Assembly: GCF_964204645.1 (NCBI RefSeq)
Contig: NC_134031.1
Location: forward strand, 13,317,807-13,381,806
DNA length: 64,000 nucleotides
Direction of reading: 5' to 3'
Source: Tubulanus polymorphus
Lineage: Eukaryota > Animalia > Nemertea
The notes under the pieces were generated by a model. The model saw only the letters and a program-made list of their open reading frames with translations, was not told the DNA's origin and did not search any database. Shown one piece after another: positions 1 to 49,147 of this stretch. How positions within the stretch are numbered: the first letter of the stretch is position 1; every line of letters begins with the position of its first letter. Made by a program: the position numbers and the translations under genes.

Positions 1-92
1 TCTGTATTCTTTTAATTCTACCATTATTTATAACATAAAAAAATTACCGCTCATCACTAAAAATTAATCTTAATAAAATTTTTCCTTAATAA

Positions 93-1418
93 ATGGATGA
101 GAAGATACCATGTGAAATTTGTGGTGAACTTCTAAGAAAAAGTAATATGGCTCGACATATGAAAAAACATGATGAAAATTATAAACCCCCTAAAATAAAC
201 TGCCCAAAATGTAATAAATTATTCTCAAGAAATTATGTTAAAAAACATTCAGAGAAGTGTAGAATTAATGGCGCAACGGCTAATGTTGATAGTAACGAAA
301 GTAATAGTAATTCTGCTGAAGTTGAACCTGAAGTTATTTGGAAAATACCTTTCTTATTCTATGATAAGGATAATATAAAATATCATTTCTGTGAGCCTTG
401 TCGAATGAAATATAACCCTGAAAATATAGAAGATTGGGAGAATCATCAATTTCGTAAAGTACATATAGATAAAATTTCTAATAAATTTGAAACTGAATTT
501 AATGAAAGAAAAAATAAAATATTAGAAAAAATAAAATATGAGAAAACGTTACCAGATAATGAAGAAACAGTTGAAAAGTTAGAAAAACAATATAATGAAT
601 TAACAAGAAAAACATATTATTGTAAATATTGTAAATTGATTATTACAACAAGTAATTCAAATCTACATAATAGAACAATAAAACATAAAGAAAACGTAAG
701 AAAATACCAAGAGCTTAATGAAGATCTATTACCAATAAATTATAAACAAAAATGCCCACAATGTATTTATGCGACCTTAAGACAAGAGGGTACTGTGTTA
801 TTTTGTAATGAATGTGGATGGCAAAAGAATTTATGGGGTGAAGAAAAAACTAGAAATTTTCTCATAGATCCAAAATTAAATTATCTAGAAGAAATTTTTG
901 AAATATTTTCTATGGAAGATCATACACCAGAATATATGCAATGGCTTGAAAAAATGAAAATAATAGAAAATGAAAATGGTGAAATAACTAAAAAAGATAT
1001 TATAAAAACAATTATTCCACCAACATTTAACACAAAACAAAAGAAAATGTATTTATATTTATTATTTAACGATTATTATGAAAAACCTAAATTAACAGAA
1101 GAAGATATGGAAAATATAAAAAAAATATTTAAACAAATATTAATGTATCATTTGGAAAATAGAATAACAGATTCAATAAATTATGAATTCTTTTTAAATA
1201 AGATTGTAAATTATTTAAACATAGATATTATAATTCCATTTGATGAATTAACAAACAAAAAGAAACAAAGAGAGCGAGATGAAATGTGGAACAATATAAC
1301 ACGTTATTTAAATGAGAAAAATGAAATAGAAGAACCTAAACAAATTATACAAGAACAATTAAATGAAAAAGAAGAAACCAATAGTGATTTCGAGTTTGAT
1401 GATATTGATCCATTTTAA
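93..1418 (+). CDS. Multi-zinc-finger protein with C-terminal poxvirus VLTF3 (A2L)-like domain
   Basis: Intact 441-aa ORF from TAAATG. N-terminal C2H2-type fingers, then a CxxC-x13-CxxC ribbon (CPQC...CNEC), LTEEDMENIKKIFKQIL, SINYEFFLNKI and DEMWNNI, which recall VLTF3 motifs. Confidence 0.75.
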   Translation: MDEKIPCEICGELLRKSNMARHMKKHDENYKPPKINCPKCNKLFSRNYVKKHSEKCRINGATANVDSNESNSNSAEVEPEVIWKIPFLFYDKDNIKYHFCEPCRMKYNPENIEDWENHQFRKVHIDKISNKFETEFNERKNKILEKIKYEKTLPDNEETVEKLEKQYNELTRKTYYCKYCKLIITTSNSNLHNRTIKHKENVRKYQELNEDLLPINYKQKCPQCIYATLRQEGTVLFCNECGWQKNLWGEEKTRNFLIDPKLNYLEEIFEIFSMEDHTPEYMQWLEKMKIIENENGEITKKDIIKTIIPPTFNTKQKKMYLYLLFNDYYEKPKLTEEDMENIKKIFKQILMYHLENRITDSINYEFFLNKIVNYLNIDIIIPFDELTNKKKQRERDEMWNNITRYLNEKNEIEEPKQIIQEQLNEKEETNSDFEFDDIDPF

Positions 1419-4400
1419 TAACCATAAGGTAATGTTTTTATACCATCATCTGAAATATGTCTTTTATCATCAAATGGATTTAAACTAGTTTTTTCAACTT
1501 CATTAATGTACATCTCGTGATCTTCTGATCTTAAACAATTCATTTTGTGTTTCATTACAATTGAGCTATATAAACACTTTATATAATCTTGAAATTCTAT
1601 ATGTTTATCAACCACATGTTTTGTTATTCCTTTTAACTTTTTAGCTTCATGATCTTTTGTTCTGTAACTATACATTTTACTTCTTATCCCAACAAATTCA
1701 ATCATTTCATCACCTCCTAATTCATCTTTAAACTTACCAGGAATCTTTTTATTATCATTGCTAAATAGTTCATGATCTTTGGGATAATTGCTAAAATCAA
1801 AATAATGTTTTAATGTTTTTAAGTCTTTTGTTATGTCATTTGTCTTGATTTTTAGTATGTAGGCGTCAGTATTGAAGCAAATTAATGGAAATCCACAGTT
1901 AAATGTACCATCTTCAGTTGATAAATCATAAACATAATCTGTTGGGTTATATATTTCAAATAAATCTTTAACTTCTTCAGTTAAATCTTTTTCTGTGTGG
2001 CTTAGATTAAAGCAATTTGGTTTAGATTTAATCAATCCAATATTCATATTGAAGCCTAATGAATTACATAATATATTTAACCCTGATATAGCAACTTTTC
2101 CTTTCTGTGCAAAGGTTATCTTTTTATCCTTTGTAAATTTTTTAGTACCATCGGCTGCGTAGAATCCAATGAAGAACCATTTTCTTAAATTATTTTTTGC
2201 ATTTAATACATAATCTGGAACTATCATGTATTCTATAACATTGCGATTATGATTTTGAATGTTTTATGTGAATAAACTTCTTCACAGAATTTCTTAATTC
2301 TTTCTAATAATCTTAAGTCTTGATTGCATAAATACCAGCAATATTTATTACCCCAAACATAATTATACACACCTGCTGAACCATCGCCCATGAAAAATCC
2401 TTTGATAAAATATTCTTTTTCTTCTAATGTTTCGGGTTCTATATTATAAATATTATCAATTATTTCATTAAATGACATATGATTCATTCTCCAATTTTTA
2501 TATCAGTTGGTTTTATTTCATCACCATTTCGTTTAATTAAACTATGATCTTCTGTAACATCTACGAACCCTAATTTAGTTCTAACTCTATAGATTTTCTT
2601 ATTTGTTTTATGTCTAATAATATTCTTTAATTTTTTCCATCCATTTCTTGTCCAAACATCCATTAAACCATTTATTTGTATTAATTCTTTTTCTCCATAT
2701 GAAATATAACATTCATTTTGTTTTGGAATTATTTCTGAAATTCTTCTTACCAATATTTTATTATTACATTTTAATAATATTGGGGTGTCAGCTGTTACAG
2801 AATCAAAATATAATATTTCAATATGCTTTTCCCCAAAAAGTGGTTGTAAAACATTATAATAAAAATCATACATTAATAATTTTGATACTTCTAAAACAGT
2901 TGAACCAATAAATATAGGTTTATTAAATTTCATTGATGTTCTTTTTAATTTAACTGCTGTTAAATAATCTTCAAATCTTTTATTTCCTAAATGTCTAGGA
3001 CTTGATTGTAAATGTCTTAATCTTTCAGAATTATTCACTAATTCAATATCATTTCTATTTCTAATATTTTCACATGTTTTACCATAAAAACTATTATTCA
3101 TTAATTTGAAGAAATCTTTTTCAAAATCTGTTTTTGATATGGTTCTCTGTTGAGTATTGAAATCTATATATTTTTCTAACCACTTCGATTGATTAAATTC
3201 AATATATCTATGTACTTTCTTTAATTTCATTCCTTGTTTTAGATAAAATTTTAACATTCTATAATGAACAATATAATTGTATTTATTATTTTGAGTAAGT
3301 ATTAATTTTTCTGTAAAAACATGATCTTTCGGTTTTATTTTCTTCTGGTATTCACTTAAATAACTATCATCTACAGTTAAATGTTCTGGGCAATAAGGTA
3401 AGTTTCTTGTTTTAAACTTTATATTTTCAGGATATTCTAAATCAACTACAAAGAAATAACCAATTGGTGCTTCATCTTTTAAACTCGCAATTGCGTTTTC
3501 CCAATCAGTTTTATCACCATTTTCAACTTCTGTTAATATAAAATTTTTATATGGTTGAGGTTGCATCATTGCCCAACCATATAAATGATTGGCATCAATA
3601 TATAATAATTTATATTCATCATTTGCTTTAAAATACCTATCTCCCATAACACCACTAATTCCACCTCTAATTGGTTTTTCAAATAATAAAACCATATCTG
3701 GTTCTTTTAATAAATCTAATTCTACATTTGTATATTTTAAACCACATTGCCAGGTTAAACCAGGACTAGAGTAGCAATAACAAGGATCAACATTAAAATG
3801 ATTCAAATTAACTTCTCTAAATTTTTCAAATATGTCAGCCAATATCATAACATCTGATTTTAAATATAAATCAACTAATTCGCCATGATTTTTCATCTTA
3901 AAATGGTTCCAAATATTTAATGTTCTATTAAACACTTCGTCTTTCACATACTCCTCTTTTAATTGATCATAAAATTGATCTTTTAATAATTCTGTTATAT
4001 TAAAATCATCATGTGTTTTATAAAATGAATAAGGAATTGCACCTTTATATCTCAATAATTTAAAATCTTGGTCATTTGGATAATAATATCGAGTTATAAC
4101 AAAATCATTATCAACTAAACTTTTTGATAAATTATCTAATGAACTTGCTAGAAATCTATAAGAATCTAAAAATCTAATGCAACCAAATTGAAATGAAATA
4201 TAATTTTCAGATGTTTTAGCTAATAGTTTAAAATCATATTTTCTTACATTTACACCATTCATAACATTATATTCTTCTATTTCTTGATTAATTGCACCCA
4301 ATTTTCCCGATAATTGTTTTATAAATAGATGGGTATCATATCCTGATAAATTATGAAATAATATTGGTACGAAATTTACTTTTTTAGCTTGTAAATTGCA

Positions 4401-6350
4401 ATCTTCATGAGCAGCTCCACGATATTTTGAATTCAAATGATCATGATCTCTAACTTTTTTATCAAATGAATAAAAACGTTTTTCACAGTAACAACAATGA
4501 GTTGCATAATTAAAATCAATTTCATCTTCTTTTGTCATAACTATTCTTTTATTTTTGTTTAATAATTTTGCAAAATCACTTTCTAATTCAATCATTTTAT
4601 CACAAAAATCATTAACTACATTTTCACCTCTAAAAGAAATATATTGACTTTCATATAATTCGGGATAATTTGATTTTATATAAATTCCATAAGCAGCAGC
4701 TCTTTGATGAACTTTTTTAATTGTATTTATAATTGGTGGGTCTTGTATTGTGTCTTCATTTAATTCATTTCCTTTATCCATTGATTTTAATAATTGCTTT
4801 TTGTTATATATTTCTTTTCTATCTTGATCAGTTAATTCTTTATTCAACGATTCAAAATCCCCATAAATTACAAATGGAACAATATTCTTAAATTTATGAT
4901 TAGTAAATTTCAATTTATAATCTTTTTCTTTTGGCATTATTAATTTACAAAAATCTTTATTATCACATAATTCTTTATGTTTTAATAATGTATTCTCAGT
5001 CATAAATTTAGATAAACATTTTCTACATAGATAAATTTTATTATGATGATCACTTTCTGTTCTAAAGAATAAATCAATTTGTTTTAACCACATATAATGT
5101 TCATTTTCATCTTTTTTGTAATATAACAAATCTATAGCATTTTCATCATCATAATATTCTGTTAAATATAAAGCTTCCAATGTATAATCTTTAATATTTT
5201 CACCTTTTGTCTTTGGTAATTGCATTAATTCGAATACATTTATTTCTAAATTATTAACTTTTTCTATTTTAGGAATCATTTTTATAGTTACTGGATATTG
5301 ATCAATTTTATATAATGTTTCATATTTCCGATAATCTGTTATTCTACAAACATTTTCCTGTGTTGGATGTAAGCAACTAATAATTGACCATAGAAAACAT
5401 TTATTATCTTCATTTTGAATATTTATTACTGCTTTTGTTGTAAATGATAATTTAATATAAGATGATGCTTTAATATCCTTTTCTGTTGTAAAGTTTGAAT
5501 CATTTTTAAACATTTTATTACTTTTTGATGTTTTATTCCTTTTTGTATTATAAACATTTAAATCTAAATATATAATTTCATTCAATGTTAAGCCAGAACC
5601 CTCAAAATATCTTTCTTCAATATGACGTTTAAATTCATTTAATATTTTTTCTAACTTCTCTTTTATTTGTGTTTTTGAAATTATTTCTTCAGAGAGTGTT
5701 TGAATATTATAATTCATTTTTTCTTCTGACTTTATAAAACTTACTTTCCCAGAGATACTAATTTTTGGATATTCAACATCTGTTATCAAATCTAGTATTT
5801 TTTCTATTATTTCACTAAATTTGCTATAATCTTCTATTGTTGTTCCTTCCATTTTAAAAAATCTAAATATAATAGCTGCAGGACCAAATTTACTATGTAA
5901 TGTTTCTAAAATTTCAATTGTATCTTTTATTTCTAGTGAATCAATATAATTTCTAACATTTTCCATGTAAGGTTTATTTGAAATGGATTTAGTTTTTGAA
6001 GTTGGTTTTTTTACTTTTTGAGGTTTATCGTCAAAATAATCTTTTCCTAAAACATTATTACGCAAATTTTGATGGTGTTTTTGTGATTCGAGATGTCTAT
6101 TATAATTCCTTTTTACTATAAATTCATTACAAACTTCACATTTTATTTCATCCACATTCATATTTTCTAATCGTTCTTTTCTTTCATTGGAATTTTCTGG
6201 AGTTTCAAAATCTATTACATTTTTTATATGATTTGCAGTTTTTTCATGTCGTGTTTTATTAGATGTATCGACGTATTTTTTACAATATTGGCAATAATAT
6301 TGATTTTTATTAACATTATTGTTTTCTGGCTGGTGTTCATTCTCTCCCAT
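1415..6350 (-). pseudogene. Protein-primed family B DNA polymerase (pPolB) with intein; breaks confined to the intein
   Basis: N-terminal Zn fingers; vOTU-like DNKCFLW...HYMW; exonuclease YGDFES and FHNLSGYD; EndoVII-like RDHDH...AAHEDCN; YIDANHLYGWAM; KLMNNSFYGK; YFD[intein]TDAY; KMYSY. Open 1288 aa from 6350. Confidence 0.93.
1871..2801 (-). other. Intein with degenerate LAGLIDADG homing endonuclease in pPolB motif C
   Basis: Starts SVTADTPILL right after YFD; block B DVTEDHSL; GFFMGDGS and GFYAADGT; block F YVYDLST; ends ICFN/TDAY. 931 nt versus 1065 nt in copy C because of internal deletions. Confidence 0.92.
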
Positions 6351-6810
6351 TTATTAGGAAAAAAAATTACTTGTGGTGATGAGTGGTGTCTCGTCCTCTG
6401 ATCTGAAAGCCTACTTTCCTAATTACTTCCGTGCCAGCCGGGGCTGAAATTACCGTACATGGGTTGGCTCGGATTAAAGGGCCGGAAGGGTTATATATGA
6501 CCACTTCCGAAGGTAGTCAGATTACCGGCAGCCTGTATGTAGTACCTACTGCACAGGAAGCCGGTTCCGTGGTATGCAATCGCGTAGTAGTACGGGTGCG
6601 AAACCCATCCCGCCGCGATGTGTCGATTCAGGCCGGAGCGATTATTGCTTCTGCCGTGCCTGTCGATTTCGTGGCGGGGCGTAGGTTTGTATCGGAGGAC
6701 GGGGAGATTAGTCCTTCAGGCATCGATGGTGCTACGCCGGATCTTGATACTCCTCCTCCCCGGAGGTCTCTAACGATAATGTTGCTCCTCAAAAACCTTG
6801 GCACGCATCT

Positions 6811-8487
6811 TTGTCGCGCGAGGATTTTATAAAACTGTTCCAAATGGATGGCGTAATACCTGAGGCTAGATCGAAACTCGAAGATCTGCTGTGGATGTGG
6901 CGATCTATTTTCGCAATGAGTGATCTCGACATGGGACGTACGAGTTTAATAGAACACAGGATTAACATGTCTGGTCCTACTCCTGTTCATCAGAGGTATC
7001 GGAGGATTCCTCCGGCGATGGTTAATGAAGTTAGGGAACATCTGCGCATGATGTTGGAAGCAGGTGTGATACGCCCGTCCAACAGTGCGTTTGCGTCTCC
7101 TATAGTTCTTGTTCGGAAGAAAACTGGAGAACTTAGGTTCTGTATACACTACCGTGAGTTGAACGAGAGAACCATTCCTGACAGGTTTAGCCTCCCTAGG
7201 ATCGACGAGCAGCTGGGTGCACTAGCTGGTTCCACTTACTTCTCATGCCTTGATCTCAAGAGCGGTTATTGGCAAGTAAGCATGGCTCCGGAGCATCGTG
7301 AACGTACAGCTTTTACTGTTGGTCCGGGGTTCGGATTTTTTTAATACAATGTAATGCCTTTTGGGTTAACGGGAGCACCAGCCACGTTCCAACGTCTTAT
7401 GGAGAACTGTTTAGGCGAATTAAATCTCCAGGAATGTCTTGTTTATATTGACGATATAATTGTTTTTAGTGACACCATTGATGAGCATATCGTGCGTCTG
7501 TCTGACGTGTTTAGGAAGCTTCAACAGGCCGGGCTCAAGTTAAAACCCTCAAAATGTACTTTTTTTCGCGAGAAAGTTTTGTACCTGGGACACATCGTGT
7601 CAGCGGCTGGTATTGAACCCGACCCCAAGAAATCTCAGGCTGTCCGAGACTGGGTTGTTCCCTCGACTGTTGCGGAACTCCGTAGCTTCTTAGGATTTGC
7701 CTCGTATTATCGTCGTTTCGTGAAGGGTTTTTCAGCTATTGCAAAACCTCTAAATGATCTTTTGAAGGGGTTGCCTAAATCTCGTAGGAACGAGGAGAAG
7801 ATTCCTTGGAACGACGTCCAACAGCAGGCTTTTGACCAACTAAAGTCAGTACTTTCTGAGCCTCCGGTTTTGGCTTACGCTGATTATAAACTTCCGTTTG
7901 AGCTTCATACGGACGCTTCTCTTGACGGGCTTGGTGCGTGTTTGTACCAACGCCAGGACGGAAATCTGAGACCTATCGCTTTCGCTAGTCGCGGTTTAAA
8001 AGATGCCGAGCGAAAGTATCCTATACATAAACTTGAATTCCTCGCTCTCAAGTGGGCTGTCAGTGAGGTGTTTTATGATTATTTGTACGGCAACGAGTGC
8101 GTCGCTAAGACTGACAGTAACCCATTAACATATGTTCTTTCTTCGGCGAAATTGGACGCTATGAGTCACAGGTGGCTCCAAGCTCTGTCCATTTGCAATT
8201 TGTCGCTTGAGTATTTATCCGGAAAGTGCATAGATGCGGACGCATTGAGTCGTCAAGTTCACGTTTCACCGTTAGTAGTGGATGCTTTGTGTCATTCGGC
8301 GGTGGCTACGCCAGTGCACTTTGTTGATGACAAACTTGATCAACCCGTGAACGGCCTGGGTTTTGCTCGGTGTGATCTCATGGCGGCTCAAGAAGCTGAT
8401 ACTGATATCCGTCGTATTGTCAAGCAGATCAAATCAGCTGGTCGTTACGTGCCGTCTTCTCGGTTGGATCGGAAATGGCAGAAATAA
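6811..8487 (+). pseudogene. pol: Gypsy reverse transcriptase / RNase H
   Basis: ASPIVLVRKK, LDLKSGYWQV, MPFGL, YIDD, TDAS, LEFLALKWAV; stop at 7342-7344. Confidence 0.92.
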
Positions 8488-9815
8488 ATAACTACGCTAT
8501 GAATGATGGCTTGTTATGTCGTCGTGTTGTCGAGGACAAATCCGAAATTTTTAAAGTTGTTTTGCCGTCTGCGGAGATCCCTTTTGTTTGCAAGATGTTG
8601 CATGATAACCTGGGTCATCCGGGTCGAGATAAAACGTTGGGTATGATTCGTGAGAGATTTTTCTGGCCGGGGATGTTTTCAGATATTGACCGATACGTTA
8701 AAAGTTGTTCGCGTTGTGTTATCCATAAAGCTCCTACTCCTTCACAACAGGCTACTTTAGTTCCTATCACCACGTCTGAGCCTTTGGAGGTGGTGTGTCT
8801 CGATTTCTTAACTTTGGACAAAAGCAAAGGTGGTTTTGAGAACGTTTTAGTCATCACTGACCATTTCACTAAGTATGCTTTAGCTGTTCCGACACGGAAC
8901 CAGACTGCACGAACAACGGCCCGTGTTCTATTCAATTCTTTCATTTCAAATTTTGGAATCCCTAAGAGGATTCACTCTGATCAAGGTGCGAACTTTGAAA
9001 GCGATCTCATAAAGGAATTATGTTCGATTTTCGGCATCAAGAAATCGCGCACTACGCCGTATCATCCCATGGGAAACGGTGCTTGTGAGCGCTTTAATTC
9101 AACTTTAATTCAACGTTTGGGTCTTTTGGAACCTGCAAAGAAAATTGCATGGAAAGATCATTTGTCTTCGTTTCTGTTTGTGTACAATTGTACGCCTCAC
9201 GAGTCCACTGGTTTTTCGCCATATCGCTTAATGTTTGGCAGGACTCCGATTTTGCCTGTAGACGAGGTTTATCAATTAAGCAAGCCTTCACGGCAATATA
9301 CAGCTACTCTTCAGGAGGAGTTTAATTCTTTATGGGCTCAGGCCAAAGTAAAGTTAGCGAAGTCAGCCGAGAATTCAAAGAAATACTATAATTCCAGGGT
9401 TCGTGGTATTTCGGTCGCCGTGGGTGACTTCGTTTTGGTGAAACGTGTAGGCATTAAGGGACGCGATGAACTCGGGGACAAGTGGGAAGAAAATCCATAT
9501 GTGATTGTATCCCAGCCTAATACGGAAATACCCGTCTACGTGGTCAGAGACACTGTGTCTGGTAAGACGAGGACGCTTCATCGGAACTGGCTGTTGTTCC
9601 TTTCAGTACCGCTGCGTCCAAATCGCAGCTCTGAGGTCGTTGGAGTTGGGAAACATGGTTCCGGGATTAGGAGAGATAAGACTAGTTTAGTTGAGCCTGC
9701 GGAGTCGGTCAGCAGCACGAGTTGTGATGAGACCGATGAGTTTATCTTGTTCGATCGGGGAGCGTCTCAGGGGACTTTTCCTCTTAATGAGGAATTGTCT
9801 GGTATCCCTCGTTAA
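8475..9815 (+). pseudogene. pol: Gypsy integrase (HHCC + DDE), frameshifted from RT
   Basis: H-x4-H...CxxC, LDF, HSDQG, YHPMGNGACER. Confidence 0.92.
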
Positions 9816-12008: not shown

Positions 12009-13863
12009 ATGGCAGTTGAAATTATCAAGACAGCAAAAGGTGGACACAAGATATGCCTAAATGGTTATATGTATGTAAAGCAATACGAACGAAACAACAA
12101 GATTCGATGGTCATGTGTAAAGAAGAAGACAGATAGATGTCCTGGTAGTGTCATGACTAATGTAATGATGGGAGAACAAGGTAGAAAGTGTACAACACAA
12201 CCACGGTCGAGATGATACGGCAGTAGAGGTTACAAAAGTTAGAATCCAGATGAACACCAAAGGAGAAACATTACACAGCAACTCCGTCCAGGTTTACTCC
12301 GAAGTTATTGCAGCAGTGAATGACAACATTGTTAAAGCACAGCTTCCAACAGAAGATGTTTGTAAGAAAGCGATAAGACGTCATCGAAGAAAGAATCTCC
12401 CAAAAGAGCCCAGCAGTTTAGCAGATCTTGAAATTGATGGCCGATGGCTGATGACTGGTGATGATGAAGATGAAAGATTCCTCTTGTATGACAATAGACG
12501 TGATGACATGAGAGTGGCGATATTTGCTTCAGATACTGGGTTAGAAAAATTGGGAAGATCAAGGCAGTGGTTCATGGATGGAACATTCAGCATGGCCCCG
12601 CCACTTTTCGAACAAGTCTATGTGATACGGGTACCACTCGGATCCTCGTCGATTTCGGTTGTGTATGCCTTACTTGAGCGTAAGAACAAGGAAACTTATG
12701 AAGAAATGTTACAAGCTATCCTCCGAGAATTCCAAGATCGACAGATGTTTCCAGAGCCAGAATTCGTCATGGTAGACTTTGAATTGGCAGTACACCAAGC
12801 AATCAGTATATCATTCGAAGACACAGTTCAAGCTCGGGGATGTTTCTACCATTTAGCCCAATCTACATGGCGAAAAATACAGTCACTTGGCTTACAACAG
12901 CATTACAACGAAAATCAGAACTTTCAGTTATTTGTTGGGATGATCGATGGACTTGCATTTTTACCCGTTCATGGATGGAACATTCAGCATGGCCCCGCCA
13001 CTTTTCGAACAAGTCTATGTGATACGGGTACCACTCGGATCCTCGTCGATTTCGGTTGTGTATGCCTTACTTGAGCGTAAGAACAAGGAAACTTATGAAG
13101 AAATGTTACAAGCTATCCTCCGAGAATTCCAAGATCGACAGATGTTTCCAGAGCCAGAATTCGTCATGGTAGACTTTGAATTGGCAGTACACCAAGCAAT
13201 CAGTATATCATTCGAAGACACAGTTCAAGCTCGGGGATGTTTCTACCATTTAGCCCAATCTACATGGCGAAAAATACAGTCACTTGGCTTACAACAGCAT
13301 TACAACGAAAATCAGAACTTTCAGTTATTTGTTGGGATGATCGATGGACTTGCATTTTTACCCGTTAATGATGTTAGTGCTGGATTAGAATATTAACTCA
13401 CTATTGTGCCGGATGAGGGGATAGAACTATTGGATTATTTCAGTGCTACGTACATAAATGGAACTTATCGTCGTGTTAGGGCGCCAAATGGACTACTGAG
13501 GTTTAGGCGTACACCTCCTTTGTTTCCGGTGGCATTATGGAATGTCAATTGCGCGACATAAAATGATGATGCTCGAACCAACAATATATGCGAGGCTTGG
13601 AATAACAAATTCAACTATCTTGTGGGACACAAACACCCTTCGATTTGGCGGACAATCCAGTCATTTCAACAAAAAAAAATGCAACAGTATCTGCTGCAAT
13701 TGAACAAGACAGTATTGGGCAGCGTCCTGCCAAAAGAATAAGACAAAAATATATTGACCTGCAGCTTCGCTTAAAGAACTTATGCATTGATTACAGAGAC
13801 GGGCGTAAAAACGTTAGTGAATTCTTGCGTGGAATCGGCTATAACATGCGCGTTTTAAAGTAA
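12009..13863 (+). pseudogene. FLYWCH-MULE (Mutator-like) transposase, disrupted
   Basis: FLYWCH-like N-terminus, WFMDGTF, VDFE, GCFYH, RTNNICEAWN. Frameshifts, stops and an internal tandem duplication. Confidence 0.9.
12570..13363 (+). repeat. 397-bp tandem duplication within MULE transposase
   Basis: 12570-12966 repeated apparently identically from 12967. Confidence 0.9.
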
Positions 13864-18372: not shown

Positions 18373-18714
18373 CAAACACACAGTGAGAACAACAAATTAT
18401 TTCTAGATAGAATAAAAGATACTTCAAATGTCAAATCAGTAGATTATAAATTTAAGAAGTTAAAAGAATTAATAATCCATAAGAAATATCTAATTACAAA
18501 TATTGATACAGTTACTATCAAATATGGAGACAAATTAGTTATTCACTTAGAATATGAAGGATTAAAAGGAAATATATATAAATTCAGAACATATTTACCA
18601 GATAGATTTCATAGATTATCAAGTGAAGATTTTGAAGAATTATGTTCTGGTGATTTCTATTTCGTATACAAAGGTAAGAATGAAAAGGGGCACCATGAAA
18701 TAGATTTCGAATAA
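18373..18714 (+). pseudogene. Small conserved Polinton protein (start codon lost), homolog of 58055-58381
   Basis: Open frame ...KYGDKLVIHL...TYLPDRF...YKGKNEKGHHEIDFE*, not in the ORF track because it lacks an ATG. Start approximate. Confidence 0.7.
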
Positions 18715-22600: not shown

Positions 22601-25235
22601 GGGAGCGTACCACTAGTCCGGGGGTTCATTGGTCCGGGGGTTCACTAGTCCGGGGGTTCATTGGTCCGGGGGTTCATTGGTCCGGGGGTTCATTGGTCCG
22701 GGATTGGATTTTAAACCTAAATGAAAGTTCCGGTATGCTAAACAGTTAATGTAAGAACACACCGGACAACAATTGAAATTAAATACATTTTTTAAATAAA
22801 TTCTCATGACGTTCGCCTATTATTAGTTGTCAGGAGCGTGGGAAATTAAGACAATCTATATGTTCCCAATGATGTTGTTTCTCAGTAATGCGAGTATCTC
22901 TGCCATTCTCGTATTAAACGTGTTGACCGAGTGTACGATATGGCTCAGAGACCGCGACTATCCACTGGAAGTAGGGGTATTGGCAAAATTCTGATTAACG
23001 AAGGCTACAAGTACCATTTTAATAGGCAACTGAGCGAGTGCATGCTCTGGCGATGCTGGCGGAAAGACTGCCGATCCAAGCTGAAAACAAACAATTTCAA
23101 TAGAGACGACGGTGACCCCGGCAATATCACAGTTTTAGACGGTCCAGATGAACATAATCATGGCCACGACGATGCGGTGATTGAGGCGGGCGAATTTTCA
23201 AATACACTAAAAAATGAAGTCCGCACTGATCCCACAAAACCTGTTAAAAGAGTTTATGACCAAGAAATATCTAGGCTGCACCAACAAGGTGGTGGGGATC
23301 GCGATATTCCCGCGTTCAAGTCGGTGAGATCGGCAATTGCAAGAATAAAAACTAAGCATATGCCCGAAATACCACATGATATAGACTCTGTTAATGTCGC
23401 AGGTGAATGGGCCCGATGTTGGAATGGCAGGCGATTTTTGCTACACCATGATAACGATTGGGGAATCCTTATATTTGGAGCCGATCGAAATCTACGGGCA
23501 CTAAATGTAAGTAACACATTGTATATGGACGGCACGTTTAGAACCGCCCCAAGACCGTATCAACAAGTTTTCACAGTTCTGGGTGACTATCATGGGCGTG
23601 TCCTCCCGCTAGTTGTCGCACTTACTGTTAACCGTGAAATTGCTCATTATCGTCAGATAATACAGGTCTTAAAACGTGAAGTTAGAAGAGCAAGTAATCG
23701 TAGATGGCGACCAAATATGATAGTGTGTGACTTTGAGCTTGCGTTGATAACGGCTGTAGAAACAGAACTCCCTCAGACGAACATTGGTGGTTGCTATTTC
23801 CACTTTAACCAAGCTTTATGGCGACATGTCAAGTTGCTTGGACTTGTGAGAGCATATAGGCAAGATAACAGACTTCGTAAAATTGTACGGAAAGTAATGT
23901 CATTGGGCTTTTTGCCAGTCGCAATAGTTCGAAATAATTTTCGCCTGCTACTAAACAGAAATTCTACAAGAAGAGCGATCAGACAATACCCGACCCTTGA
24001 TGATTTCCTGTTTTATGTAGAAAACACGTACATAAATGGCCAGTTTCCAATACCACTATGGAATGTGTACGAGCGAAACATGGATTGCCGTACCAATAAC
24101 AATGCTGAAGGTAAAGGGCTTGGTTTTTCCTTAAATCTACTAAATGTCATGCGCAATTTTAATAGTACGTGCTTTGCGCCTTGTTATATTATGATAATCC
24201 TGATAATTAAGAAAAAATCCTAGATCCATATGCAATCAGACAGGTTATTAAAATCCTAATTTTTATGGTACTTTGGATGAACATGCCACCTTATACAGTC
24301 TAATAGGACAACCACGGGATTCCTATTTATCATAGATAAGGACGATTTTCGTCTGTCCCAACCAAAGTCAATACAAACTCGCATCAAAATATTTGTTTAG
24401 AAAGGGGATAGTGCGAAAATCCTGGTAATACGACACAATTTATACCGCGAGTTTTGTCGTAAGCCGAATCGTACTATCGGGGTTCGACTGCATATTCACT
24501 TAAACACAAAATGCTATTTTCAGCATTTCACAGGCGATGGAATGACCAGGTACAAGTCCGACATCCAAACTTATGGATCCTCATACGGCATCTGAAAGAT
24601 CTACAGGCACAGACGGCAAATAGTATTGCCCAAATGAACAGAGGTGGCGATCCCACTGTGCGACGTCGCAAATGGCGCAACTTGGAAACACGTCTCCGCA
24701 GACTCAAAAGAGAGTATGAGGATGGTGATAGAGATGCCAGTAACTACTGGAGAGCAGTTAGCCATCTGATAGCCGACTTCTAGAATTTTTTGCAAATAAT
24801 GGTTTTTACCATATAAAAATAAGGACGATATGTCAATAATCAACTGGTGATGTGATTCTCTGGTTACCGTAATTCGACTGACTGGTGTTTGTGTGGTTTT
24901 TCATTTGATTTTCTTTTAATTATTGGTTGTAAATACATGTACATGTAATTACGCTCACTGAATATAGAAACTACATTATACAGGTTTATATTACGTTTTG
25001 AAAAATATAATAGTCGCAATTTCATATTTGGCAAAATCTAATGGCTGTTTTAGGACCTGATGCGGAGAGAAAAATATGTCTACCGGTACACCGAGACACA
25101 TTTGACATAAAGCATCCCTGGATAGCAAAAACAAGTGATCAAAGCTAATCCCGGACTAGTGGACCCCCGGACTAGTGGACCCCCGGACTAGTGGACCCCC
25201 GGACTAGTGGACCCCCGGACTAGTGGGATGACCCC
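22601..25235 (+). mobile_element. MULE DNA transposon with tandem-repeat TIRs, apparently intact
   Basis: Inverted arrays of 17-bp units (CACTAGTCCGGGGGTT-like) at 22610-22702 and 25150-25225; direct repeat GTAACACA at 22593-22600 and 25236-25243. Confidence 0.88.
22940..24783 (+). CDS. FLYWCH-MULE transposase, two exons (22940-24110, 24524-24783)
   Basis: YMDGTF, CDFE, GCYFH. GT..AG intron 24111-24523 restores TNNNAE-AFHRRWN; spliced length 1431 nt, in frame. Confidence 0.85.
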
Positions 25236-26004: not shown

Positions 26005-27183
26005 TTGAAAGATGAAAAACAATGGTTATTAAAATCTAATATGAAGTATTGGCAGAACCAATTAAATTTTGCTGTTTATTGTGCAACAACTGGTTGTGGA
26101 ATTAGTTGGAATGATCATTTGAATAATTCTAAATATAAATTAATTCAAAGTTTATTTAGATTTCATACATACTTTCAAATCAGAATAATATTAAATGAAT
26201 TAGAGTGCGCTTTACCAGGATCTAGATATTTTAAAGAATTAGATAATAATATTAATTTATCAAAGTTTTATAAAATTTGTAATGAATTTAATATAGATAT
26301 AAGTAATTCTGATTTTAGAACGAAAATTGGAACAATAAGATCACTTCCTTGCCCTAAAAAGATTGCAGAATATTGTGCACTTCCCATACCATCTAATAGT
26401 TTTTATAATATCAATAATAATAAATTAGGTTATGGTAAAATAGAAACTAAGGATTTAGAAACATTAAATTTCAATAAATTACCGAAATTTTATGATCATT
26501 TAAAACAAGAAAACAATAATGGTTGGGTTTATTTTATTTTAGAAAATAGTGAAGGTTTTACTAAATCAGGTATAGTAAGAATAAATCAATCTATTAGAAC
26601 TTATTTGATATGTATTTTAGGTGCGCAAGTTGAAACAAGATCCCCAATAATTGGAAATTTAAATACATCATTTGATACACAGAAACAATTCAAAGTATTA
26701 TTTGAAGATTCTATTCATAATGATAAAAATAGATCGATTCCAGAAAACATTGTAAGATATCAAAATTATTTAGATAAATCACATATTAGATTAAATTATT
26801 GTATAGGCCCTAATCTATTTATTATTTCTAATGATTTAGTATTAAAGATGGGAAACATAATTGGTTACAATAATCTAATTAAAACTGCAACAATAAATAA
26901 TTCATTTGGATTAAATGATATAAATAAAAAGATAATTACTGCTCCAAAATTAATGGAAGGTGAAAAAAATAAAAAACATATTCAATCAACAGAAACTAAA
27001 ACTAATAATATTAAATTAAATAATGATTCTAAAATAAAAGATTACAATACATCAGAAAATATTAGAACTGATAATATTCAACATGAAATAATTAAACTAA
27101 ATGATGATAATAAATCCCATGAAAATACTAAATTAGCTATAACTTGTATAGGAATTGTAATCGGAGGAATATTATATTTTTAA
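26005..27183 (+). CDS. Conserved uncharacterised Polinton protein with hydrophobic C-terminus
   Basis: YWQNQLNFAVYCATTGCG motif; homolog at 50634-51925. Confidence 0.6.
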   Translation: MKDEKQWLLKSNMKYWQNQLNFAVYCATTGCGISWNDHLNNSKYKLIQSLFRFHTYFQIRIILNELECALPGSRYFKELDNNINLSKFYKICNEFNIDISNSDFRTKIGTIRSLPCPKKIAEYCALPIPSNSFYNINNNKLGYGKIETKDLETLNFNKLPKFYDHLKQENNNGWVYFILENSEGFTKSGIVRINQSIRTYLICILGAQVETRSPIIGNLNTSFDTQKQFKVLFEDSIHNDKNRSIPENIVRYQNYLDKSHIRLNYCIGPNLFIISNDLVLKMGNIIGYNNLIKTATINNSFGLNDINKKIITAPKLMEGEKNKKHIQSTETKTNNIKLNNDSKIKDYNTSENIRTDNIQHEIIKLNDDNKSHENTKLAITCIGIVIGGILYF

Positions 27184-27205
27184 TTTTAATTTTTTTATTA
27201 TGTAA

Positions 27206-28564
27206 ATGGATGTAGAAGGTGTAGAAGATTATGAAATGGGAGAAATGGGAAATAATAATGAAGGATATATTGATGATGATTATAATGATGCAGAAACTAA
27301 TATTGATAATGATGATGAATCAGCATATAATTCTAATTTAACAGATAGTAGTTCTAAAACCATATCAACAGGTGAATTTGATAGAAGAACTAAATCGAAA
27401 ATAAATCCTGAAAATGAAGATCCATATTTAGTAAGACAAGATTTAGATTATATAGACCAAATGTATAAATTCAAACCTATATTTATTCTGGATATAATGT
27501 AAATGATAGAGGCGCTAGACTTTTAGTACAAGAATTAAAATATTTAGATGACGAATATTATTATCATTTGAATGAAGAATATTATATTGATATCTCTTAT
27601 AAAAATCAAAACAAAATATTAGCAGAATCAACTTTGGAAAAATTAGAACCAGATAGAATTAAAAAAATAAGTATTAATAATGAAATAGAAAATGTAACAC
27701 AAGAAAAAATAAAACAAAATAGAAAAATATTTAAACAAAGAATTAATGAATTATTTGAAACAATCAATAATAATTTAGAACCAGAAACAACTTCTGGTAA
27801 ACTTAAATCAAATAAAGTACCAATTGAAAAACTTTTACCAAATGGATTACTTGATGCAACAGATCAAGAATTAGAAGATTTAGATATATTTTCTGATGAA
27901 GCAATTAGAGAAATTATTAGTATAAGAAATGAAGCTGATAAAATTGCACATAATAAAAGTATAAGATATTATTGAAGTTATTGAAGAAATTGAAATTAAA
28001 AAAAATGCATATTAAGAAAAAGAAATTGAAAAATTAGAATATAATATAGAATTTCAGAAAGAAGAGAGAGATATATTATCAAAAGAATATGGTAATAATT
28101 TTAAAAGGTTAAAAGATGTTTTTAAAAGATATCTAATAAAACCAAATTCTGAAATATCATTAAAAGATAGAATAAGATTATTATTTAAGTTTGAAGGAAT
28201 CACAATTCTTTCAATTCTAACAGCTGTAACTATGGTATTCACAACAATAGGTTTAGCAATATCAAATGCTTTAAAATCTACACCTACTCCCAATAACCCG
28301 GATAAACCCCCAGATAATAATTCAATACAATATAAAGTTAAGGATTGTTTAGAAAAATTAGCAAAATATTTATGGGAACTATCTAAAAAATCTGCTGCAG
28401 AATTACCCGGAGTTATTGCATCAATTGTTGGTTTTATATTGAAATCTGCTGGGAATATTCTTAATTCTGCTGCTGAACATATTATTTTATTTTTAATTAC
28501 AGTTGTAAGTGCAATTATTTTTGGGTTAGTGAATATGATATCAAACGATATCAAGAAAAAATAA
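27206..28564 (+). pseudogene. Large acidic/coiled-coil protein with C-terminal TM segments, frameshifted
   Basis: ORFs 27206, 27568 and 28232 join through frameshifts; identical breaks at 51951-53309. Confidence 0.7.
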
Positions 28565-28614
28565 TAAAAAATAAACATAATCAAAAATAAATAATTAATT
28601 TTTTTGTTAAATAA

Positions 28615-29862
28615 ATGAGTGGGAGTTATATAAGTCCTTCTAAGATTTCTAGAATATCTAATGCTATTAAAGCAGAAAGATCACATCATATTATTACTCA
28701 TAATCCTTCAAATATTAATCCCGATGAAACTTTATATGTTAGAATCCCTAGATTAACACAAAATACTTTTTATGTTCCAAATAGTATTTATTTATCAGCT
28801 GATATAAAAATAACCGGTAATAATAATAATTATGTTGTTGATAATGTTGGAAGATATTTGATTAAAAAATTAACTATAAAGATCGGCCCAGAAACAGTTT
28901 TCTCATTAGATGATTATAATTTATTTATGCATTATAAAGATTTATGGTTAACTAAAGAAAATAGAAATAATATGATATTTCAAGGTATTCAATCGGAAAA
29001 CCAAAATAAATTAAGATCTGAAGCCAATAATGCAGTAGTAGCTAATGACGTAGATAATTTGATTAAAAAGATTTATGGAAGCAAATATAAAATTCCATTA
29101 GACTTTGAATTGATAAATAATAATGCACCTTTATATAAATACGCAATTCAAGAAGACGTTATATTCGAAATAACATTTGCTCCTGTTAATGAAATTGTAA
29201 TATCTTGCGTTGTTAAAGATATGGGTTATAAATCATCGAATATATGTTTAGAATATGATACAGTAACTGATGAAAATATTGCTAACACAATTCAAACTCA
29301 ATACAATCAAGGATTTTCATTATTATATGATTATATTGATAAATTTAAAACTGTAACTATTAATGCAAATGATGAAATAATTAATGAGAATATTAACTTC
29401 CCAAGAAGATCTATTAAAGGTATATTAATATTTTTTACCATTGCAACATATACTAATGGTGCAATAAATGTTGATAATTATTATAATCCTGAAATAACAA
29501 AAGTAGAAATAACTATCGAAGGAATAGCAAATAAAATATTTTGTCAAGGAATGAGAATGATTGATCAATGGCCAGAAATTAGAAAACATTTTATGAATGA
29601 AAAAGTAAAATCATCTGAAAATTGTAATATTAATCAAATTGATTATTATACCGGTAATAAATATGCATTATGGTTAGATTTTAGAACAACAGAGGATAAT
29701 TCATTACATGGTTCTGGAAAAAAACTACAAAACACTAAAGATGGAATACAATTATTCATGACAAAGAATAAAGGAATCAAAAATTTTAAAATGCACATTT
29801 ATATTATATCTGACGCGCAATCAGATATTGTAAATTCTCAATTAAATAGTGTTATGTATTAG
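28615..29862 (+). CDS. Putative double jelly-roll major capsid protein
   Basis: 415 aa, beta-rich, located in the structural module; NPSNINPDETLYVRIP, PRRSIKGILIFF, ALWLDFR resemble Polinton MCPs. Confidence 0.75.
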   Translation: MSGSYISPSKISRISNAIKAERSHHIITHNPSNINPDETLYVRIPRLTQNTFYVPNSIYLSADIKITGNNNNYVVDNVGRYLIKKLTIKIGPETVFSLDDYNLFMHYKDLWLTKENRNNMIFQGIQSENQNKLRSEANNAVVANDVDNLIKKIYGSKYKIPLDFELINNNAPLYKYAIQEDVIFEITFAPVNEIVISCVVKDMGYKSSNICLEYDTVTDENIANTIQTQYNQGFSLLYDYIDKFKTVTINANDEIINENINFPRRSIKGILIFFTIATYTNGAINVDNYYNPEITKVEITIEGIANKIFCQGMRMIDQWPEIRKHFMNEKVKSSENCNINQIDYYTGNKYALWLDFRTTEDNSLHGSGKKLQNTKDGIQLFMTKNKGIKNFKMHIYIISDAQSDIVNSQLNSVMY

Positions 29863-29894
29863 AATTTTAACTTTAATAAAAATTTATATAATAA

Positions 29895-30782
29895 ATGGAA
29901 GGAGGTAAAGTATATAAACATATTCCATACATCGATACACATGAAAATAATGATGGTTTATATTATGTAATACCTTGTAATATAGCTTTGATATTTGATC
30001 CTATTTTCAAAATTTATAAAACTAAACTAAAAGAAATCGATAATAATAAAAGTGGTGTTGTTGATAATTTAAGTAATGTAATTGATAATAATGCAATACC
30101 TTCTACATCTAATAATGTAATACCTTCTTCATCTAATAATGCAATACCTACTACATCTAATAATGTAATACCTACTACATCTAATAATATAATACCTTCT
30201 ACATCTAATAATGCAATAATATTAAATATTAGTGAAAATAGAAATTATTGTGATTATTGTAAAGGTGAATTTTCAAACGCTCCATCAAATTGGAATAAAC
30301 ATATGAATACAAAGGTACATATTACTAATGTAATAGAACGTGTTGGTTTAAGAGAATTGATAGAACGCCCATTTATATATGTTACAAAGTTTGTTTCAAA
30401 TAAAAAAGTAAATGGTAAAGAATTATATGAAGATTTATTATTAGCAACACCTAATAAAGATGAATTAGATTTAACCGATGCTAATAAAATATTAGGATCA
30501 AACATTGTAAATGAAATATTAGGAGCAAACACTAATAAAGATAATAATGAAAATATAGTTACAGATATTGATAATAAAGATTCTATGAAACCTAAAGTAG
30601 AAAATAATGATAAATTTGATTGGATGAAAAAGCATAACAATGAAACAACTATTGATGATTCAGTAAAAAGGGTGAAGAATAAGTATAAAAATAATTCAAC
30701 TATTGATGTAGATTCGGTAGAGCATTTGAATATATTGCTAGGGCCTGATAGTGAATTGGAGAGTGATGATGAAAGTATTTAA
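29895..30782 (+). CDS. Hypothetical protein with 8-aa repeats and one Zn finger
   Basis: 24-bp tandem repeat (NNAIPSTS-like, about 5 copies, 30087-30218); CDYC...H...H finger; acidic tail. Confidence 0.65.
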   Translation: MEGGKVYKHIPYIDTHENNDGLYYVIPCNIALIFDPIFKIYKTKLKEIDNNKSGVVDNLSNVIDNNAIPSTSNNVIPSSSNNAIPTTSNNVIPTTSNNIIPSTSNNAIILNISENRNYCDYCKGEFSNAPSNWNKHMNTKVHITNVIERVGLRELIERPFIYVTKFVSNKKVNGKELYEDLLLATPNKDELDLTDANKILGSNIVNEILGANTNKDNNENIVTDIDNKDSMKPKVENNDKFDWMKKHNNETTIDDSVKRVKNKYKNNSTIDVDSVEHLNILLGPDSELESDDESI

Positions 30783-34089: not shown

Positions 34090-35180
34090 ATGAAAAAAGA
34101 ACAATATTTAAGAGAGTTATATTATAACCCAGAAAGTGAAGTATCATATTCTAACGTTTCAGAATTATGGAATAAAATTAAATCTGATAATGAAAATGGT
34201 AATATAAAATATAGTGAATTGAAATCATGGTTACAAAATCAACCAACATATCAAATACACAAGAAAATGGATAAAACTTATTTAACAAGAAAAGTTATGG
34301 TTTCATATATCGATCAACAATGGCAAGCAGATTTAATTGACATGAAGAACTTAGAAGAATACAATAAAGAATATTTCTGGATATTAAATATTATAGATAT
34401 ATTCAGTAGATACGCATGGTCAATTCCAATCAAAAATAAAACTGGTATAGAAGTGACAAATGCTTTTAAATCAATATTTAAAGAAGTTATTCCATATAAG
34501 ATACAATTTGATGAAGGTAAGGAATTTTATAATAAACATTTTAAAAAACTATTATCTGATAACGATGTAGATTATTTTTCAACACACTCAAATAAAAAGG
34601 CATCTATTATAGAAAGATTTAATAAAACATTGAAAACTAGAATGTGGAAATACTTTACTGCTAATGAAACATATAACTATATCGATGTGTTAGATGATTT
34701 AGTGAAAGGTTATAATAATTCTAAACATAGTTCTATAAATATGAAACCTATACAAGCTAGAAAAGAATATAATTCAGAAATAGTTTGGAATAATTTATAT
34801 GGCGCGTTTGTTACACATGATTTCGGAGAACCTAAATTTAAAATTGGACAACACGTTAGAATATCTAAATATAGAAAAACCTTTTATAAACGTTATACCC
34901 CTAATTTTACTGAAGAAATATTTAAATTAAAAAGACAATATTAACTAAACCTTTTGTTTATAAATTAGAAGATTTAAAAGATGAAGAAATATTAGGTTAT
35001 TTCTATGAACAAGAATTATCACTTGTACCAAATCCAGATGAAATAGAATACAAAATAGAAAAAGTATTGAAAACAAAAACTCTTAAAGGAAAAAAGTATT
35101 CTTTGGTGAAATATAAAGGATATGATGATAAATTTAATGAATGGATTTTATCTAGTAAAATTAAAAGAATAAATGAATAA
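34090..35180 (+). pseudogene. Retroviral-like (rve) integrase with C-terminal chromodomain
   Basis: WQADLIDM, IDIFSRYAW, FDEGKEF, IERFNKTLK; frameshift near 34930, then IEKVLK..VKYKGY..FNEW. Confidence 0.92.
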
Positions 35181-35784
35181 AGATTTATTTATATTTGAAC
35201 CGCATAATATGTTAGTTACTGGGGTAACCAACTGTGGTAAAACATATTTCATATTAGACTTGTTAGAAACTATTTATAAGAATCATTTTGATAATATAAT
35301 ATTATTCTGTCCTACTTATGAAATGAATAAAACATATAATAGAGATATAGTTAAGATAAAAAAGTTTATTATATTAGATCCTAAAACAGTAAAAGAAAAT
35401 TTAGATAATTGTATAAAAATAGCAATTGATACTTATAAAGGATCAAATACATTATTCATTGTAGATGATTGCGCAAATTTACATGATTCAAAAGTTAGAG
35501 AAAGTGAGTTATGCTATTTAGCTTTCTCTGGGAGACATTTCGGGATAACAACATGGGTTTTAAATCAAAAATATAATTCAATTGTTAAAGACTTTAGGGA
35601 GAATATAAGATTTCTAGTTTTATTTTATAAGAAAGATAAAAAATCTATGAAACAATCATTGGAAGAAAATCAAATTATACCTACTGAATTACATGATGAA
35701 TATATGAATAAATTAAGAAATAATAAAGGTTCAAAATTATTACTGAGATTACAATTTCCCTATGAATATAAATTTATAAAATAA
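35173..35784 (+). CDS. A32/FtsK-like genome packaging ATPase
   Basis: Walker A GVTNCGKT, Walker B FIVDD, GRH...Q motif. Confidence 0.9.
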   Translation: MNKDLFIFEPHNMLVTGVTNCGKTYFILDLLETIYKNHFDNIILFCPTYEMNKTYNRDIVKIKKFIILDPKTVKENLDNCIKIAIDTYKGSNTLFIVDDCANLHDSKVRESELCYLAFSGRHFGITTWVLNQKYNSIVKDFRENIRFLVLFYKKDKKSMKQSLEENQIIPTELHDEYMNKLRNNKGSKLLLRLQFPYEYKFIK

Positions 35785-38569: not shown

Positions 38570-40090
38570 GTCACCGACGTTTACGTCACAGGACAACGTG
38601 TAGGTGCACTGGTAGATAGTGGAGCTAATATAAGCTCCGTATCTAGATCATTTCTAGCCAAGACTAAATTTGCTGATTCAAAATTAGGTACTAGTCATGT
38701 AAAACAAGTCGTCGGTGTAGGTGGTACTGTCATTCCAGTTGCAGGTACAATTGAACTCCCCCTTATATTTCCGGGCGTTCATGACCTAATATATTTCAAA
38801 TTCCACGTATTTGAACGATTACATCACAATTTGATCATAGGCATTGATTTCATGAAAGCCAAAAATGCAACTTTAGACTTTGCAAATAGATGTTTCAAAC
38901 TCGAAGACGTTACGGATAAAAACGAAGTTCATGTCCTACCAATAACCATCGAAGGCCCAGTAGCGTATTCGATCTCTTCAGTAAAACTGGAGCCTCAATC
39001 AGAAACCGATATTCCGTTCACTATACCTAAACATCTAAACAATACGGTCATACATCTAAACAATACGGTCATATTACTATCACCTCTCCCGGGGCTGACT
39101 CAGAATAATTTCACCGGAGCTCGCTGTCTAGTTAGAGTAGAAAAAGGTACTGCTCGTATGAGGCTTATTAATCCAACAAAGAAAACTATCTCTGTTCCAA
39201 GACATACTGCAATCGCGTCAATGGCTTCATTAGACGATACCTCTTCTATTATATCTCTCGATGAGTCCTCTGAAACCTTGGTAGCAACAATGGCCACGGC
39301 TCAGCACGATACAGGACATGTCGCCAGACATGGTCCGAAACCCGAAGCCCCGCCTGTGGAGGATATTAACTTTGACTTGTCCGAATCGGATCTAACAGAT
39401 GGCCAAAAAGAACAGCTTAGTCAATTTCTGCATCACTATCGTGACAGATTTTCGACCAATTTGTACGAACTAGGTCATACAAATATGCAGCAGCACAAAA
39501 TAGATACAGGCAATAACCCACCCGTGTGTAGCGCACCGTACCGCCAACCACCCCACATTCGCAAGGAGCAAGACCGCCAGATTGATGAAATGCTTAAAAC
39601 AGATATCATTACTCAGTCAAACTCACCCTTTACTTCACCAGTGGTGATGGTTAAGAAGAAAAATGGCGAATACAGATTTGCCGTAGATTACCGTGCCTTA
39701 AATCGCATCACTAAGACCACTTCTTATCCCTTACCGAAACTTGCCGATGTCGTCGATTCCATAGGTGAGTCACGAGCTTGCAGACAGTCACAACTCTAGA
39801 CATGACCTCGGGATTCTGGCAGATCAAATTAGATCCTGAAAGCCTCAAATTAGACCCTTTCCGTTAACAAACATTCCGTCTAATAAAAAGCCTCCTAAGG
39901 TAGATGACCAATTTCACGATATTGCTAAAATTCTACGTCTGCGATACTTTGACGGTAACCGACAGTTCTACGTCAAATGGGCAGATGGGTCCCCACCGTC
40001 TTGGGTAAGAGATGCTGATTTAACGGAGGCAGCAAAAATTGAGTATATCCGGACTAACACCCTCAGTGGAAAAGCGAGGAAAAGAATGAC
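38570..40090 (+). pseudogene. pol: Gypsy pol remnant: aspartic protease, RT N-terminus, large deletion, chromo-like tail
   Basis: ALVDSGA, IIGIDF, SPVVMVKKK, RFAVDYRALN, DMTSGFWQI, then a jump to FYVKWADG. Confidence 0.8.
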
Positions 40091-49131: not shown

Positions 49132-49147
49132 TTTTTTCATTATATAA

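Follow-up and report, generated by a model that had tools for sequence, protein, structure and literature searches.

The open reading frame at positions 93 to 1418 encodes a member of the VLTF3 family, in which four zinc fingers are fused to a complete VLTF3/A2 module. It belongs to the first of three Polintons (A, B and C) in the 64-kb window, i.e. the whole stretch of DNA that was analysed, and the genes of these elements have predicted promoters of the poxvirus late type. VLTF3 as such is a known cargo of Polintons; what is new here is the poxvirus-leaning version of the protein and the occurrence of late-type gene starts throughout the elements. The explanation that we place first, at slightly under even chances, is that a pox-type virus infecting the same cell provides the late RNA polymerase complex that transcribes the element, and that the VLTF3-like protein would join this complex and favour the promoters of the element.

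The finger-fused VLTF3-like protein

93-1418, plus strand: VLTF3-like gene of Polinton A, an intact ORF of 441 aa with four N-terminal zinc fingers and a complete A2/VLTF3 module
111-686, plus strand: the four extra zinc fingers of this gene (aa 7-26, 37-56, 100-124 and 177-198), from motifs and a zf-U1 match (E 1e-6)
753-1325, plus strand: VLTF3 module of this gene (aa 221-411), a CxxC-x13-CxxC ribbon and helical domains
46988-48312, minus strand: second VLTF3-like copy, in element C, 85% identical over aa 51-441, its 5' part broken by an in-frame stop and a frameshift

The sequence-only reading had described the gene product as a VLTF3 (A2L)-like factor with extra zinc fingers, and both points hold. 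The two motifs that it quoted are present. A motif scan places the CxxC-x13-CxxC ribbon at aa 221-241, where it is in register with poxvirus and giant-virus ribbons in alignments, and the module retains its ribbon cysteines along with F, NY and W at the conserved positions. The extra fingers number four, of which the first and the last are similar to fingers at the N-terminus of pPolB, the protein-primed PolB of the same element (43% over 35 aa, pairwise E 7e-8). An acidic tail is also present.

In a Pfam scan of the full-length 441-aa protein, zf-U1 alone exceeded the cut-off, and Pox_VLTF3 was missed at E<=10. Trimmed queries bring Pox_VLTF3 above its curated cut-off of 25 bits: the stretch 1050-1325 reaches 32.6 bits (E 8e-8) and the longer stretch 723-1325 reaches 28.3, in a match that covers profile positions 83/84-165 of 168 only. 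The Pfam family A2L_zn_ribbon gave no match to the protein despite the ribbon, and among six family members queried singly, Pfam found Pox_VLTF3 in one. Divergent finger-fused VLTF3 copies escape full-length Pfam scans.

Other methods agree with the trimmed Pfam matches. A poxvirus A2 profile scores 25.4 bits against aa 221-411, compared with 5.3 bits for the best shuffle (988 reported of 1000), and hhalign against 35 giant-virus-type VLTF3 sequences gives a probability of 91.8% (E 7e-7, 188 columns). In the ESM Atlas, 28 of 30 matches carry Pox_VLTF3 (top score 0.94). Structural comparison with A2 points the same way. An AlphaFold model (pLDDT 79) served as the Foldseek query, a single-sequence fold (pLDDT 47) having been discarded, and its best match in BFVD is cowpox VLTF3 (E 9e-7, TM 0.60, 203 columns, predicted model against predicted models). 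The cowpox protein and two entomopoxvirus factors take ranks 1, 3 and 5, and the nine BFVD rows at E<=0.001 comprise six named VLTF3 or late factor, two unnamed and one named exonuclease. Foldseek against the PDB returned nothing at E<=0.001 for the model, and PDB sequence searches gave no match for the VLTF3 module. The likeness to poxvirus A2L/VLTF3 (PF04947, PF08792) runs from the ribbon through the helical domains over about 195 aligned residues. The window protein differs in its sequence (14-24% identity in the Foldseek rows), in the four fingers and the acidic tail, and in that its gene sits in a Polinton without a Pfam-detected RNA polymerase or other late factor. A2L is described as a vaccinia late factor that is made at the intermediate stage (PMC11980589), and the VLTF3-like protein is a putative late-transcription factor for a viral RNA polymerase.

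The fold could also be read in a way that needs no helper. Among the top matches in VIA are cyclin H, Brf1, TFIIB, ORC and Rb pocket folds (Z 6.1-6.4, rmsd 3.4-5.1, 83-107 residues aligned), as would suit a self-encoded TFIIB-like factor: with its zinc ribbon and cyclin-like helices, such a factor would bring host RNA polymerase II to the TAAATG promoters inside the nucleus. However, these Z values tie with those of nuclear-receptor domains and lie below the tool's threshold for helical folds. Together with the promoter data discussed below, this makes the TFIIB-like role quite improbable in our view.

To place the protein among VLTF3 types, 120 viral loci selected by a giant-virus motif and 120 selected by a motif shared with the window were used, which yielded 72 long giant-virus-type VLTF3 and 10 full-length poxvirus A2 sequences (labels inferred from gene order and sequence, with Pfam confirming a single member of each type). 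A profile of the window family gives 45-57 bits to the 10 poxvirus proteins and at most 24 bits (median 10.4) to the 72 of giant-virus type; with the selecting motifs masked, the values are 16-29 bits for poxviruses versus at most 11.8 for giant viruses. Base composition is not the cause of the poxvirus scores, because two poxvirus loci of 55 and 66% GC both reach 54 bits. In the reverse test, the window protein scores 10.3 bits with a profile of the giant-virus module, where shuffles reach 9.0 at most. Profile and fold scores hence favour an affinity to poxvirus A2 over giant-virus VLTF3, as the likeness to vaccinia A2 in the sequence-only reading had suggested, whereas the tree is less decisive. 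In this mixture-model tree of 31 rows (6 of the 10 poxvirus and 18 of 69 giant-virus modules, five family members and two proteins of a short Polinton type, with no entomopox, asfar, ego, irido or mriyavirus sequences among the rows), the family joins the poxviruses at 89/86 support, but both alternatives are unrejected (AU p 0.14). The short VLTF3-like ORFs, which come from two control Polinton loci (L289 and L294), fall into a group of their own. These ORFs (L289:9668-10189 and L294:2740-3228; 163-174 aa) are without the middle helices; Pfam VLTF3 is absent from them, they score 17.8 and 11.7 bits with the giant-virus profile, and the one in L289 adjoins pPolB.

Close relatives are few. A protein search of 1.84 billion representatives returned four sequences, three of which are real relatives (48, 38 and 41% identity); P0003 was rejected as a repeat-protein match over 28 residues. 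P0001 and P0002 have the finger fusion in common, and P0004 consists of the VLTF3 module only. On L241, the contig of the best relative, an intact VLTF3-like gene lies tail-to-tail with pPolB, as in A, and the pPolB of this contig is intact and intein-free. Word-indexed protein searches with the family matched P0004 alone, itself part of the query alignment. Related-locus searches of viral contigs and metagenome contigs gave no loci, and 15 viral loci fetched by a family motif contained no family member. Within the window, the reported presence in A and C and absence from B is borne out, with the qualification that the copy in C is broken: six-frame profile searches found no VLTF3-like remnant in B. 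In raw reads from a second study, depth over the VLTF3-like gene is about 230-270, against about 8-14 over the flanks, which are themselves repeats, so that no copy number follows. The high depth and the many variants indicate a multi-copy family.

Three Polintons in the window

1-6427, no strand: element A, cut by the window edge, terminus ending at 6427
13988-36035, no strand: element B, with terminal inverted repeats, a 6-bp target duplication with one mismatch (5/6) and a MULE insertion; no VLTF3-like gene, same TAAATG promoters
41385-58684, no strand: element C, a complete Polinton in a decayed state that has terminal inverted repeats; its 6-bp target duplication is perfect
1415-6350, minus strand: protein-primed PolB of A, oriented tail-to-tail to the VLTF3-like gene and broken off inside its intein; start T8-N5-TAAATG
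1871-2801, minus strand: LAGLIDADG intein in pPolB motif C of element A, bounds inferred by alignment to L241
about 45460-46535, plus strand: LAGLIDADG intein in pPolB motif C of element C
28599-29862, plus strand: likely major capsid gene of B, start T7-N6-TAAATG; an about 93-98% identical copy lies in C at 53344-54568
34090-35784, plus strand: integrase (retroviral type) and packaging ATPase (A32) of B; TAAATG marks the start of the ATPase, not that of this integrase copy

A, B and C are Polintons, and the terminal repeats and 6-bp target duplications of B and C identify them as integrated. The elements have 24% GC. The hallmark Pfam families DNA_pol_B_2, rve and Pox_A32 were matched, in an assessment based on B and C, A being cut by the edge. 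The double jelly-roll capsid of B and C was recognised from weak Capsid_N matches and from ESM Atlas neighbours. Among the ORFs scanned by Pfam, several of them from decayed or unassigned genes, there was no match to an adenovirus-like maturation protease, a typical gene of group 1 Polintons, and none to an RNA polymerase, a capping enzyme or other late factors. The pPolB intein occurs in A and C but not in B or L241. Its PDB match to PI-PkoII, an intein endonuclease from an archaeon, is weak (E 3e-4). PMC11161782 mentions that homing endonucleases have inserted into pPolBs of polintons.

Several further observations concern the elements and their surroundings. The capsid blocks of B (26490-29898) and C (51235-54568) are 93-98% identical and the pPolBs about 73%, a contrast that would be in line with a recent module exchange between Polinton families. 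A small unassigned gene (18388-18708, plus strand) follows pPolB in B, at the place where A and C have the VLTF3-like gene. Its counterpart in C (58058-58381, minus strand; 31% identical) is preceded by a copy of the pPolB promoter and adjoins the far terminus. The flanks and inserts at 6497-9815, 12250-13396, 22940-24223 and 38852-40980 contain retroelement pol sequences (RT, RNase H, integrase; weak Baculo_F) and MULE/FLYWCH transposases, a content that points to an invertebrate as the probable host. Over 40000-59900, the summed contig depth in run X1 is hundreds of times higher over C than over the flank, and X5 raw reads are raised about 20-60-fold in most bins; these values give no copy number, and extrachromosomal amplification of element C is only a possibility. 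At 55504-55548, in the integrase region of C, thousands of X5 reads end or loop back, probably on account of a high-copy short repeat or a small mobile element.

Gene starts and predicted late-type promoters

74-95, plus strand: predicted poxvirus-late-type promoter of the VLTF3-like gene of A, with an A-rich stretch, T5, a 6-nt spacer and TAAATG
49132-53362, plus strand: seven gene starts in C with T6-7, a 6-7 nt spacer and TAAATG, at 49148, 49510, 49756, 50183, 50634, 51951 and 53360

In most intact genes of the elements, the ATG directly follows TAA. In a blind count of element ORFs of at least 90 aa, fragments of broken genes included, 18 of 37 start at TAAATG; the controls have 12/488 in 50 pPolB loci and 3/56 in the 10 AT-richest of these (Fisher p 9e-16, elements at 18/37). 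TAAATG accounts for 6-8% of all ATGs in the elements as a background. The pattern extends upstream: 41.4 kb of element DNA contain 19 distinct T5-N3-8-TAAATG sites, versus 2.7+/-1.8 expected from 500 local shuffles (maximum 11), and the 22.6 kb of non-element DNA contain one. Gene starts make up 18 of the 19 sites and represent 11 gene families, the copies in B and C not being independent; the spacer is 6 nt long in 14 sites and 5 or 7 nt in the rest. A T ten bases upstream of TAAAT is found in 25 of 31 listed element starts (a curated list, partly drawn from the TAAATG list and not blind), and the same position is the T peak (58%) in 52 poxvirus TAAATG starts. The exact hexamer is missing from the starts of PolB and integrase of B, the copy of gene 18729 and the ATPase of C, and gene 58381.

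The vaccinia late promoter is described as an A/T-rich stretch, a 6-bp spacer and TAAAT(A/G) (PMC7117657), in which the tenth base before TAAAT is a conserved T (PMC11980589), and the vaccinia late layout as a whole as a T-rich core, a spacer of 5-7 or 6 bp and TAAAT(G/A) (PMC5294985, PMC7117657, PMC11980589). The element gene starts have this layout and are predicted late-type promoters. A second promoter class may exist, in which an A-rich core replaces the T-run, at the starts 18729, 29895, 31320, 33715, 35173 and 54565, similar to poxvirus intermediate promoters. The four VLTF3-like genes of A, C, L241 and L242 all have Ts behind an A-rich stretch, which may represent a hybrid promoter. 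As a specific signal, the poxvirus early terminator TTTTTNT was rejected: with synonymous shuffles, 23 were observed in the elements versus 34.9 expected, and control Polintons drop alike (35 versus 53.1).

The distribution of TAAATG starts outside the window is uneven. A pPolB motif fetched 70 loci, 53 of them of at least 4 kb, and from these the 50 controls were taken and three loci set aside (L259, L306 and L314). The latter have TAAATG starts in 7/7, 5/10 and 5/11 ORFs (17/28 jointly), and their gene sets differ from those of the window elements. VLTF3 was not detected in the parts of these loci that were examined, and the promoter is thus not tied to the VLTF3-like gene. The three loci may represent further helper-dependent lineages. 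On L241 and L242, all three long ORFs start at TAAATG. The control loci with the closest capsid relatives have no such starts (L307 0/21, L322 0/7). Ten poxvirus loci, which cover one orthologous stretch, have 60/147, and giant-virus VLTF3 genes 2/69.

TAAATG could instead be a by-product of dense packing, either as part of an upstream poly(A) hexamer or as a translation context, with the VLTF3-like gene as a captured cargo, repurposed or drifting; we judge this account unlikely. The 24% GC of the elements would suit it, as would AATAAA, a possible poly(A) signal, which is read at 16/26 starts, but the other 10/26 keep TAAATG without it, and AT-rich controls lack the pattern. Coupling of stop and start was rejected, since the TAA is not the in-frame stop of the upstream gene and at most 21 open codons precede it. 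Moreover, the PolB genes of A and C, beside the terminus, and the divergently oriented VLTF3-like gene of C have the full pattern with no upstream gene on the same strand, and the fixed 6-nt spacer would be left unexplained.

The promoter data also bear on a TFIIB-like factor acting with RNA polymerase II. The 6-bp target duplications, which imply integration in the nucleus, would agree with it. Against it, B and the three loci set aside have TAAATG starts without a VLTF3-like gene, and the promoter of the VLTF3-like gene is itself of the same type. With the established TATA spacing, polymerase II would start downstream of the ATG from a TATA-like box at -19 to -3.

Proposed helper dependence and possible roles of the VLTF3-like protein

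The sequence-only reading had considered that the protein could redirect or inhibit the late transcription of a helper. The tie to helper late transcription gains independent support from the poxvirus-late-type promoters across the elements. In the mechanism that we put first, the Polinton integrates in the host genome, and most of its intact genes lie behind predicted late-type promoters. The polymerase of a co-infecting helper would then initiate within TAAAT and add 5' poly(A) leaders by slippage. The VLTF3 gene would have been captured from such a helper and have gained fingers like those of the element's pPolB, and its product would act as a feed-forward booster of the element's own promoters. 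The protein would not be the trigger, because its own gene has the same promoter type, and the gene would be accessory, because B, which lacks it, has promoters of the same kind and a capsid block that is nearly identical. Nor does the helper have to be a true poxvirus, because yeast linear elements use a TAAAN initiator.

Rather than boosting element promoters, the fused protein might be a decoy. With the same dependence on a helper, it would then be a dominant-negative factor that binds the helper's late complex or DNA and lowers its late output, in competition or in defence of the host. The gene is dispensable in B, and the added fingers are of a nucleic-acid-binding type. It also evolves faster than PolB, as an arms-race factor might: identity to L241 is 45-48% for the VLTF3-like gene and about 70% for PolB, and dN/dS between the copies in A and C is 0.75 (CI 0.45-1.33), above the values for PolB pieces (0.19-0.49) and capsid (0.37). 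The value of 0.75 is however not distinguishable from 1 and would be accounted for to the same degree by relaxed selection, decay after integration or an arms race. A dN/dS comparison with L241 was discarded as unreliable, the AT-rich synonymous sites being probably saturated. A decoy is further disfavoured by the completeness of the module, with its cysteines and conserved positions, and by the fact that the element genes appear to need the same late complex, so that a general block would silence them too. We hold a decoy to be improbable, although not as much so as the TFIIB-like role. The same dN/dS value would suit a drifting cargo, as would the VLTF3-like cargo known from other Polintons and the short type in L289 and L294, but in L241 an intact gene is found in the same gene order, at the identity given above.

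VLTF3 in Polinton-like elements is not without precedent. The sequence-only reading had stressed that it is not a standard Polinton gene, which overstates the surprise: homologues are described in coral polintoviruses (PMC11131425, with reference to Krupovic and Koonin 2016), two PLV clusters have one in about 30% (10.64898/2026.06.19.733378), and PMC8502044 mentions VLTF3 where the legend of a figure deals with non-animal MELD viruses. The window gene resembles the coral polintovirus and PLV genes in being a patchy accessory gene. As far as the descriptions go, it is set apart in that the latter are linked to giant viruses or mimivirus, and that no finger fusion, poxvirus affinity or promoter motif is described for them. 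One supplementary file of PMC11131425 does not contain VLTF3, and VLTF3 or VLTF is not mentioned in PMC4642659 and PMC11161782. PMC11253617 calls VLTF3 undetectable outside Nucleocytoviricota, and the window gene adds to the exceptions to its use as a marker of this group. The literature searched, which mostly excludes subscription journals and does not cover figures and bioRxiv supplements, describes no TAAATG promoter motif in Polintons and, in the portions available, no finger-fused, poxvirus-leaning VLTF3.

Reliance on the late transcription of a helper has parallels as well. Virophages are described as sharing the late promoters of their helpers, and mavirus as integrating and being reactivated (PMC6428243). 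Like the genes of the window elements, those of mavirus and Sputnik, which are small DNA viruses, have a late promoter motif, in their case that of the helper, and mavirus integrates with a retroviral-type integrase. Their hosts are protists, whereas the window element is a Polinton in a likely animal and has a poxvirus-type motif and its own copy of a late factor. PLVs are reported from entomopoxvirus occlusion bodies (PMC11296320) and are, as Polinton-like elements, proposed to be hyperparasites of poxviruses, but were found in the occlusion bodies and not as chromosomal copies; the main text of that paper does not contain the words 'promoter', 'transcription', 'VLTF' or 'TAAAT'. The yeast elements pGKL1/2 (PMC6211774) are likewise pPolB elements with a vaccinia-like TAAAN initiator, but are described as having their own RNA polymerase and capping enzyme and no integration.

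A more far-reaching proposal, which we consider conceivable but somewhat doubtful, is that this Polinton lineage is a mavirus-like provirophage of an undiscovered poxvirus-like virus of the host. All genes would then be read by the late polymerase of the helper, and some members of the lineage would have captured and re-armed the helper's A2 to take over the polymerase. The transcription of animal Polintons and their unaided particle formation are a long-standing question, and no virions of them have been observed according to 10.64898/2026.06.19.733378. If true, the provirophage reading would explain why virions of animal Polintons went unseen, and motifs at gene starts could predict the helpers of other Polintons. 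The late-type promoters and the poxvirus-leaning late factor suggest the class of helper to look for, and would make the helper dependence of an animal Polinton directly testable.
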